Source of the DNA: Marispirochaeta sp.
Lineage (GTDB): Bacteria; Spirochaetota; Spirochaetia; JC444; Marispirochaetaceae
DNA: 64,000 nt
Assembly: GCA_963676835.2 (NCBI GenBank)
Contig: CAXXFF010000003.1
Coordinates: 384,001 to 448,000 of the forward strand
Direction: 5' to 3'
How positions within the stretch are numbered: position 1 is the stretch's first letter; every line of letters begins with the position of its first letter. The position numbers were made by a program. Of the stretch, positions 22,711 through 23,758 are shown piece after piece.

Positions 22711-23758
22711 TGGGGCTTCAATTCGACGCTCTCACATCTCCTCTTAACCTTCCAGCACCGGGCAGGTGTCAGTCCCTATACTTCATCTTGCGATTTAGCA
22801 GAGACCTGTGTTTTTGGTAAACAGTCGCTTGAACCTTTTCTCTGCAACCCCTAACAAACTTTAACATCCATCGGGGGCCACACTTCTCCCTAAGTTACGT
22901 GTGTATTTTGCCGAGTTCCTTAACGTGAATTCTCCCGAGCGCCTTAGAATACTCATCCCGCCTACCTGTGTCGGTTTGCGGTACGGTCCCTTACAGCATA
23001 TCTTTAGAAGCTATTTCTCGGCACCTTGATCCCACCAGCTTCGCTCGTCCGTAGACTCACTCGTCTTAACACCTCGTCTCAAACTGCGGATTTACCTGCA
23101 GCTCTCAACAACTAAGTGCTTAAACCGGGACAACCATCGCCCGGCCTGGCTTCGCCTAATGCGTCGCTCCATCAGTCCTGTAAGAGGTACGGGAATATTA
23201 ACCCGTTTCCCATCGACTACGCCTTTCGGCCTCGCCTTAGGGGCCGACTAACCCTTGGGCAGATTACCTTAACCCTGGAATCCTTAGGCTTTCGGCGGAC
23301 AGGGATCTCACCTGTCTTTTCGTTACTCATGCCTGCATTCTCTCTTCCATCCCCTCCAGCATCCCTTTCAGGACACCTTCAACAGTACATGGAATGCTCC
23401 TCTACCCCCTGCACCTATTTAAAATCACCAGTTATTAGACTATTCGATATTCGTTCGAGCATTTGACGTCTTGCTCGTCCGTCTTTTAATCGCTTTTCAC
23501 GTTTTTGCGCATCAGATTTGCTTAAGTATGCTTCATAATACACTAAATGCCATTCGTCATTTTTTGTGTACGGGCTTAGTTTCCCTTCATGCTCACTCAT
23601 TCGTCTTTTAAGATCACTTGTATAACCAATATACACATGCTCTTTTTGACTCTTCAGCACATAAACGTAATACATAATCTAACCTCGTAATTTTAAATAG
23701 GTGCAGGGCCGTAGCTTCGGTACTATGCTTAGCCCCGTTACATTGTCGGCGCACAACG

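Follow-up and report, generated by a model that had tools for sequence, protein, structure and literature searches.

A 302-nt insert in one 23S rRNA gene of Marispirochaeta encodes an 86-residue GIY-YIG protein and may be a minimal, insertion-sequence-like element

Bacterial rRNA can be fragmented by intervening sequences, which were first recognized decades ago and are described as sporadic, probably moved horizontally, and without an assigned enzyme (PMC4990558). The classical 23S inserts, known from Salmonella, Leptospira, and Coxiella, sit at helices 9, 25, and 45, where the helix-45 site gives fragments of about 1.2 and 1.7 kb; some encode a four-helix protein, S23p/23S_rRNA_IVP. In Coxiella the intervening sequence is excised by RNase III, and its ORF is reported not to be made in vivo (PMC4990558). 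Further inserts come from the CPR/Patescibacteria, where non-intron rRNA insertions encode PF01541, 15 of them in 16S and 15 in 23S genes; the paper, which cites Brown et al. 2015, finds them at several poorly conserved sites, calls them sparse, and places them outside homing (Tsurumaki et al. 2024, PMC11270868). A third point of comparison is the Ssn family (cd10448), typified by SsnA of Neisseria with its NTS/SRM repeats. SsnA requires the sequence of the stem, not the loop, and cuts single-stranded DNA, but neither duplex DNA nor RNA, a few bases upstream, and its authors remark on the insertion-sequence-like layout of ssn genes (Chenal et al. 2025, PMC11893778).

The window analyzed here, 64,000 nt of a Marispirochaeta sp. 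contig (CAXXFF010000003.1), carries an rRNA operon on its minus strand: 16S (25549-27073), a tRNA, 23S (21702-25004), and 5S. The genome holds four complete 23S genes, three of 3021 nt and this one of 3303 nt, a net gain of 282 nt. At one site the short copies read GCTACGG-CTTGCATGTTTACATGCAGG-GGTAGAGG, and the same flanks border a 302-nt block (23407-23708) that replaces their 20-nt hairpin. A first-pass annotation had put the exchange at 294 nt for 13 nt and the terminal inverted repeats at 16 nt; comparison of the copies extends the former to the whole hairpin and the latter to 25-nt arms, 92% complementary, at both ends of the block. Other points of that annotation are confirmed: the flanks are 99.5% and 99.8% identical to those of the other three complete copies, which lack the insert, and neither the insert nor its protein recurs in the genome. 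The features are as follows.

21702..25004, minus strand: host 23S rRNA gene, 3303 nt against 3021 nt in the other copies
23407..23708, minus strand: whole element, 302 nt, in place of the 20-nt hairpin of the other three 23S copies
23684..23708, minus strand: 5' arm (rRNA sense), which starts CCCTGCACCTATTT and matches the family consensus YCCNRCACY
23407..23431, minus strand: 3' arm, partner of the 5' arm (25 nt, 92%), containing the final codons and stop codon of the ORF
23415..23675, minus strand: 86-aa single-domain GIY-YIG ORF (Slx1/UPF0213-like), assigned from Pfam, residues, and model
23682..23686, minus strand: Shine-Dalgarno-like GAGGT, 6 nt ahead of the ATG and paired in the predicted RNA stem
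24324..24424, minus strand: gene-less 101-nt insert with family arms (CCCGGCACCTAAATCC), at E. coli 23S ~535-550, in all four 23S copies
15010..15079, no strand assigned: gene-less 70-nt intergenic hairpin whose first 11 nt are the element's first 11 nt

The gene-less insert at 24324..24424 lies in what we take to be helix 25. The element itself lies at the position of E. coli 23S 1162-1184, consistent with the known insert site in helix 45 (PMC4990558) and with the region named in the first-pass annotation. Its form is that of an intervening sequence, an extended stem-loop in place of a small rRNA hairpin, and so is its placement, at a known site and sporadic among operons (one of four copies here, and none of nine 23S copies from four genomes of the same genus). 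A 326-nt stretch containing the element folds at -106.7 kcal/mol (z -8.3), a stability reached by none of 100 shuffles, and the insert has 36% GC in a host rRNA gene of 51%. The 86-aa ORF fills the element in the rRNA sense and stops within the 3' arm; the Shine-Dalgarno-like word previously claimed for it is present and is paired in the predicted fold. No target-site duplication borders the window's copy, and no group I or II intron matches the insert in Rfam up to E 10. An intron or RNA-guided reading of the insert was set aside, as the ORF and arms leave no room for such an RNA and Rfam gives no match.

The element is real, and no assembly artefact as far as could be tested. An insert filling one of four copies, in an operon that differs from the other three at eight further positions and in a genus where none of nine 23S copies is filled, might be an artefact, as the first-pass annotation had allowed, or chance foreign DNA in one operon. 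Against this, sequencing run X1, possibly the source sample, yields a 359-nt contig identical to 23379-23737, which reaches just under 31 letters beyond the element on each side, and run X2, from another study, yields a 359-nt contig at the same place with 52 differences. Among the pieces listed for runs X3 and X5 there is no contig of the element's length, which carries no weight either way. The same site is also filled in other genomes and metagenomes, and we consider the artefact reading negligible. A close homologue of the ORF occurs in one of five same-genus genomes, at another rRNA site (helix 25). Seven of the differences that set the filled 23S apart from all three others lie in its 5' part (rRNA positions 329-605), and at positions 394, 395, and 398 the filled operon agrees with sister genome G002, hinting at what may be a separate history for this operon. 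No foreign co-conversion tract was found beside the element, the operon's other differences being at least 300 nt away.

The ORF, the only short GIY-YIG ORF in the genome, is a single domain (Pfam E 1.2e-14), as claimed before, and no further DNA-binding domain was found in its 86 residues. It carries the superfamily's Tyr, Tyr-x-Gly, Arg, His/Tyr, and metal-binding Glu (model pLDDT 87) as Y5, Y15, G17, R25, H29, and E60, all conserved in 55 of 55 rRNA-borne copies; the residue roles are assigned by analogy to UvrC and I-TevI as given in PMC2630997. In fold and sequence the closest proteins are UPF0213, HIGLE, and Slx1, with weak likeness to I-TevI (Foldseek E 0.93) and 15.2 bits against TIGR01453, whose cut-off is 56. 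Among 1336 candidates of similar length, 777 match at E 1e-10 or better, and only eight longer relatives were found; in two of these (P0126 and P0128) the GIY-YIG domain is fused to the pilin-type domains PF12019 and PF07963.

Six unsaturated pairs of rRNA-borne ORFs, picked for high identity from loci found mostly by protein likeness, a route that favors intact genes, give dN/dS of 0.05-0.12; in one, changes fall at 15.5 of 53 synonymous and 3.5 of 181 non-synonymous sites. This signature of purifying selection supports an ORF conserved as a working enzyme would be. As a homodimer the protein models with a score of 0.44 against 0.01 for the best control, contacts agreeing to at least 96% between runs at pLDDT of at least 71; the mark applied passes 20 of 30 homodimers of solved structure and, among 23 single chains, 1. 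The predicted interface is the conserved YYEAY strand of each copy. The model supports a dimeric protein, whose two active sites would, we infer, suit a staggered cut.

Three genome searches and one search of 61 relatives gave 253 distinct ORFs, which a script assigned to rRNA (56), RNase P RNA (8) and a T-box leader (1), both labels resting on short motifs, to positions beside tRNA or tmRNA genes (37), to Pelagibacteraceae (62), or elsewhere (89). One locus (L113) was moved by eye from the script's class of others to 23S; an Rfam scan of 20 non-rRNA loci returned two tRNAs only. The Pelagibacteraceae stem from a second protein query (L082), which drew 62 of 80 loci from that family, and were kept as a control group. 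An inverted repeat (score at least 12) encloses 125 of the 253 ORFs, compared with 7 of 583 mismatched pairs: 54 of 56 in rRNA, 8 of 8 in RNase P RNA, the single T-box copy, 53 of 89 elsewhere, 3 of 37 beside tRNA genes, and 6 of 62 in Pelagibacteraceae, these last six being without the family arm motif and five of them A/T runs. Thus 34 of the 37 tRNA-adjacent and 36 of the 89 other relatives have no enclosing stem.

The rRNA-borne ORFs occupy 12 sites, 4 in 16S and 8 in 23S, all 56 in the rRNA sense, within elements of median 308 nt, none of which holds a transposase gene. The first-pass annotation had proposed a discrete family with common arms that occupies the tips of 16S and 23S hairpins across many phyla, with at least nine sites, a terminal stem nearly always present, and the ORF always in sense. 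These counts support it; the proportion of loci that it placed in rRNA (38 of 79) is not reproduced, as the first 80 loci gave about 16 by eye and the full set 56 of 253. Hosts, judged by record titles whose bins may err, include Patescibacteria, Planctomycetota, Bacillota, Pseudomonadota, Cloacimonadota, Deferribacterota, Thermodesulfobacteriota, and Synergistota, with others; one archaeal label (L109) is probably a binning error, since the flanks match L119. For instance, a Pararhizobium 16S gene has a 307-nt element where relatives have CCCC-TTCG-GGGG or CCCC-GCAA-GGGG, so that here too the element occupies a hairpin tip, and a 66%-identical element (201 of 303 columns) fills the same helix-45 site as the window's copy in L105, whose 23S flanks are 69-79% identical. 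Single 23S genes (L001, L014, L115, and L114/L160) hold two gene-bearing elements at different sites, and the two of L001 cluster with L118 on the tree (support 91). A Shine-Dalgarno-like word precedes 26 of the 56 rRNA-borne ORFs and 1 of 67 other stem-enclosed ORFs, a difference confounded by host group.

Colonization of many rRNA hairpins therefore stands, but a family defined by rRNA was too narrow. The arm consensus YCCNRCACY, from an alignment anchored on that motif, is common to rRNA and non-rRNA copies, and most of the relatives for which no rRNA flank had been detected prove to be this element at other locations: RNase P RNA, a T-box leader, the 5' ends of tRNAs, promoters, start codons, and further intergenic positions. 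The family is not rRNA-specific. Elements from rRNA and from elsewhere are mixed on a quick-method tree that excluded all but four Pelagibacteraceae, proteins under 65 aa, and duplicates, and that is weak (19 of 189 branches starred). No pair with at least 72% amino-acid identity was found to link rRNA with a site outside it, and a very recent jump from one to the other has therefore not been caught.

Outside rRNA many of the elements carry a further, putative mark of insertion. Among those with an arm anchored on the consensus (65 of 125, stem score at least 11), and with duplications read from the filled sites, an exact direct repeat of 4-6 nt flanks 17 of 34 non-rRNA elements, the other 17 lacking a 4-nt duplication. 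Repeats of at least 4 nt flank none of 31 rRNA, RNase P, and T-box elements and 264 of 5000 swapped controls; in one subfamily they flank 18 of 27 distinct arm pairs. The duplicated repeats often restore a useful downstream motif, be it TTGAC, TATGA at a start codon, the 5' end of a tRNA, or GATAAC as part of what resembles a DnaA box.

Gene-less copies have nothing beyond the arms in common with full elements. As with insertion sequences and MITEs, terminal inverted repeats are common to gene-bearing and gene-less forms. A 1.1-Mb genome (G061) has 34 matches to the arm pattern against 1 in the control; 18 stretches fetched from it contain two gene-enclosing pairs and 13 pairs that span 39-122 nt and lack the gene, and an exact duplication of 4 nt accompanies 9 of these 13. 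At L310 a gene-less copy lies in RNase P RNA. In the window's genome the arm pattern matches 19 times (control 2), more often than in any other of 301 genomes from the phylum, in most of which it is near chance level. The matches are the element, the 101-nt helix-25 insert four times over, four hairpins between genes that measure about 70 nt, and some shorter hairpins. The 70-nt hairpin is the center of a composite intergenic repeat of several GC-rich hairpins, REP/BIME-like, with four copies in the genome (window 14945-15115; C1 ~632860-633010; C3 ~496000-496125; C3 ~951390-951520). A 40-nt gene-less hairpin with family arms (C2:1625401-1625440) lies just upstream of a gene starting MAKKKVTGLIKLQ, which we take to be ribosomal protein L11-like, and is perhaps at the tip of that gene's leader RNA.

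Within rRNA, searches of DNA blind to the protein (rRNA flank plus arm start as query) find gene-bearing and gene-less inserts side by side. At helix 25, 33 loci, several of them copies from one genome, comprise 22 with a GIY-YIG gene, of which a profile identified 19 and translation 3, one being interrupted by a stop and two partial. A further 7 hold inserts of 77-202 nt that lack the gene, and 3 hold 16-34 nt, with 1 remaining; two hairpins of 16-19 nt from Bacteroidota (L272, L282) may belong to the host rRNA and match by chance. At helix 45, 9 of 15 metagenome matches are 23S genes, 2 with the gene, 3 with gene-less inserts of 102-105 nt, and 4 near-identical with 28 nt. The complete genome G359 has a 316-nt gene-bearing element at helix 45 in two 23S copies and a 110-nt gene-less insert in two others, all with identical 14-nt arms. 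At helix 25, G356 has a 299-nt element in two copies and in one a 522-nt nested element with a different nuclease, and G003 has a gene-less insert in one of four copies. Nested helix-25 inserts of 488-581 nt, a gene-bearing element within an outer insert with similar arms, occur in Gammaproteobacteria (L128/L392, L265, L267, L271, L273, L275, L280, L281, L293).

Set beside the described systems, the inserts of the CPR are almost certainly the same elements. The passages of PMC11270868 consulted give no arms, family, non-rRNA copies, miniatures, or mechanism, whereas here the element lies in a 4.4-Mb genome, not of CPR size, and by record titles also in cultured Bacillota, Deferribacterota, and Pseudomonadota; cultured carriers of such inserts include Deferribacter thermophilus, Methylotuvimicrobium KM1, and Paracoccus isoporae. 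With Ssn it shares a single-domain GIY-YIG protein under 100 aa, a gene flanked by hairpin DNA that is also found without the gene, and stems that in both can begin TCCCGC. However, separate short hairpins flank Ssn genes, whereas one inverted repeat of other sequence encloses the gene here; the window's protein is 30-42% identical and lacks the C-terminal NP-W-DL stretch; SsnA is called monomeric, whereas a dimer is modeled here; and the main text of PMC11893778 has neither target duplications nor RNA-gene sites (no match to rRNA or tRNA). On the tree this family falls outside a branch of eight Ssn-type proteins, five adjoining an NTS match and three chosen by likeness (SH-aLRT 98), although an AU test does not reject joining the window's protein to them (p 0.30). 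The protein is probably not a member of the Ssn family.

Classical intervening sequences likewise have a long stem that replaces a small hairpin at the same helix, a sporadic presence among operons and species, and lower GC than the host, but the window's element encodes a conserved nuclease and not S23p, its ORF is under purifying selection, and its ends recur at 12 sites in rRNA as well as elsewhere. With IS/MITE, IS200/IS605, and RAYT systems the family shares terminal inverted repeats, autonomous alongside gene-less copies and, at half of the anchored non-rRNA sites, a putative short target duplication; unlike them, the element has no DDE, HUH, serine, or DEDD transposase and measures about 300 nt in all. 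No insertion-sequence family is known to have a GIY-YIG domain as its sole protein. Slx1, HIGLE, and UPF0213 share the fold and catalytic residues, but no RING or partner domain is present here. I-TevI-type enzymes share them too, but here there is neither the I-TevI DNA-binding domain nor a group I/II intron; an I-TevI-type homing endonuclease was considered and rejected, given 86 aa in a single domain, weak I-TevI and TIGR01453 scores, and many sites. The element has the form of an rRNA intervening sequence, and its mode of action is most likely that of an insertion sequence, a very small one, whose nuclease resembles Ssn. In the open-access literature, subscription journals being mostly uncovered, we found no account of the element family, its enclosing arms, duplications, miniatures, or non-rRNA sites.

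Our preferred reading, at a probability of about 0.6, is that this is a minimal, insertion-sequence-like selfish element whose Slx1/UPF0213-like nuclease mobilizes both the element and its miniatures, and which is tolerated in rRNA as an RNase III-type intervening sequence. The unit would be one gene of about 85 codons enclosed by a single long inverted repeat, and its protein would be made from the rRNA precursor or the excised RNA. The nuclease, we infer, recognizes the stem of its element when the DNA is in single strands and, like Ssn nucleases at their hairpins, makes its cut next to it; a dimer would make a staggered cut, full elements and arm-keeping gene-less miniatures would be moved alike, and host repair enzymes would complete the insertion. 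At ordinary sites this would leave the 4-6-nt duplication seen in sequence, and in structured RNA genes the surviving form would be the one seen there, in which a short hairpin of the host has given way to the stem of the element, so that the RNA still folds. In 23S rRNA the insert would be cut out without ligation by RNase III, whose gene is present in the host genome, like known intervening sequences; recombination in conserved flanks would carry it among rRNA operons and species. Loss of the gene would lead to inserts of 100 nt and finally about 30 nt with the same arms, a size series that is seen and whose direction is presumed. On this account the copy in the window would have entered its operon, one of four, only recently. 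The weak point of the account is the insertion step, for a nuclease without a strand-transfer tyrosine or DDE triad has no known way to join DNA; and since rRNA copies have no target duplication, two routes or later trimming must be assumed.

A wider claim is more tentative, and we put it somewhat short of even odds: that these elements form an insertion-sequence class of about 300 nt, whose 85-residue, probably dimeric GIY-YIG nuclease recognizes its own stem and moves element and miniatures, and that, across bacteria, much of what is seen as gene-less rRNA intervening sequences, extensions of RNase P and leader RNAs, and REP-like hairpins descends from them as active parents.

Whether the nuclease is the mover at all is the point on which the first rival turns. 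The gene may be a passenger or domesticated, with the hairpins spread by another enzyme or by recombination and the nuclease kept for some other effect, such as cutting incoming single-stranded DNA at the hairpins, like SsnA in Neisseria. Purifying selection means that the ORF has a function and leaves that function unspecified; many relatives have no enclosing stem, those of the Pelagibacteraceae resemble an ordinary inherited gene, and SsnA lowers transformation at its repeats and is not demonstrated to move anything (PMC11893778). A passenger is nonetheless hard to square with a gene as patchy as this one within its genus, lodged precisely within the mobile unit wherever that occurs, at dozens of sites unrelated to one another, and in several copies per small genome, with no transposase gene beside it in the rRNA-borne elements. 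We regard this explanation as unlikely.

Classical homing appears less likely again. Here the enzyme would target a long, specific site in duplex DNA of the empty rRNA allele, cut it, and be copied in by gene conversion, which suits the clean replacement without duplication, the filling of one site in distant hosts (L105), and the coexistence of filled and empty alleles in the window's genome and, for the gene-less insert, in G003. Yet the 86-aa domain has no DNA-binding module beyond itself and only a weak structural match to I-TevI, and the elements occupy 12 rRNA sites in variable hairpins and many non-rRNA sites with duplications; on the weak tree, related proteins sit at different sites rather than at a single site per lineage. 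The CPR cases were likewise judged to lie outside homing (PMC11270868). Gene conversion may still spread a copy once it is inside one operon. We give little credence to an RNA maturase, a protein that cuts its own insert from the rRNA precursor. Although the ORF lies in the RNA sense in 56 of 56 rRNA copies and stable RNAs are frequent hosts, copies with these arms and this protein are also found between genes, flanked by duplications of a DNA type. In addition, rRNA retains inserts that lack the gene, an RNase III gene is present in the host, and RNA is left untouched by SsnA (PMC11893778).

The preferred reading, an element mobilized by its own nuclease, bears on the source of some unexplained inserts in bacterial rRNA and makes it testable. 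Gene-bearing and gene-less inserts with the same ends occur at both classical sites, even within one genome, and outside rRNA those ends carry the hallmarks of insertion sequences; ends shared inside and outside rRNA make the element a concrete candidate for the origin and spread of intervening sequences. If the nuclease mobilizes the element, it would be among the smallest mobilizing enzymes known and categorically new, the GIY-YIG class being one that, to our knowledge, no described insertion sequence uses. Should its cutting resemble that of Ssn, the known single-strand nucleases with sequence specificity would gain a large set of members. Inserts of 300 nt in 16S variable regions distort amplicon surveys, and the GIY-YIG genes have been missed because they lie inside rRNA annotations.

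Outside rRNA, seven elements (L002, L016, L029, L041, L187, L190, L199) are embedded in a larger, conserved repeat that carries an ACTTACG-type hairpin on either side and lies directly upstream of a gene start; most bear Omnitrophota or Planctomycetota labels, and those scanned have no Rfam match. The 34 stemless ORFs beside tRNA genes (for example, L004, L020, L044, L053, L054, L056, L064, and L077) in many cases lie downstream of a second, broken copy of that tRNA, into which short hairpins of the form CCCGC...GCGGG intrude.
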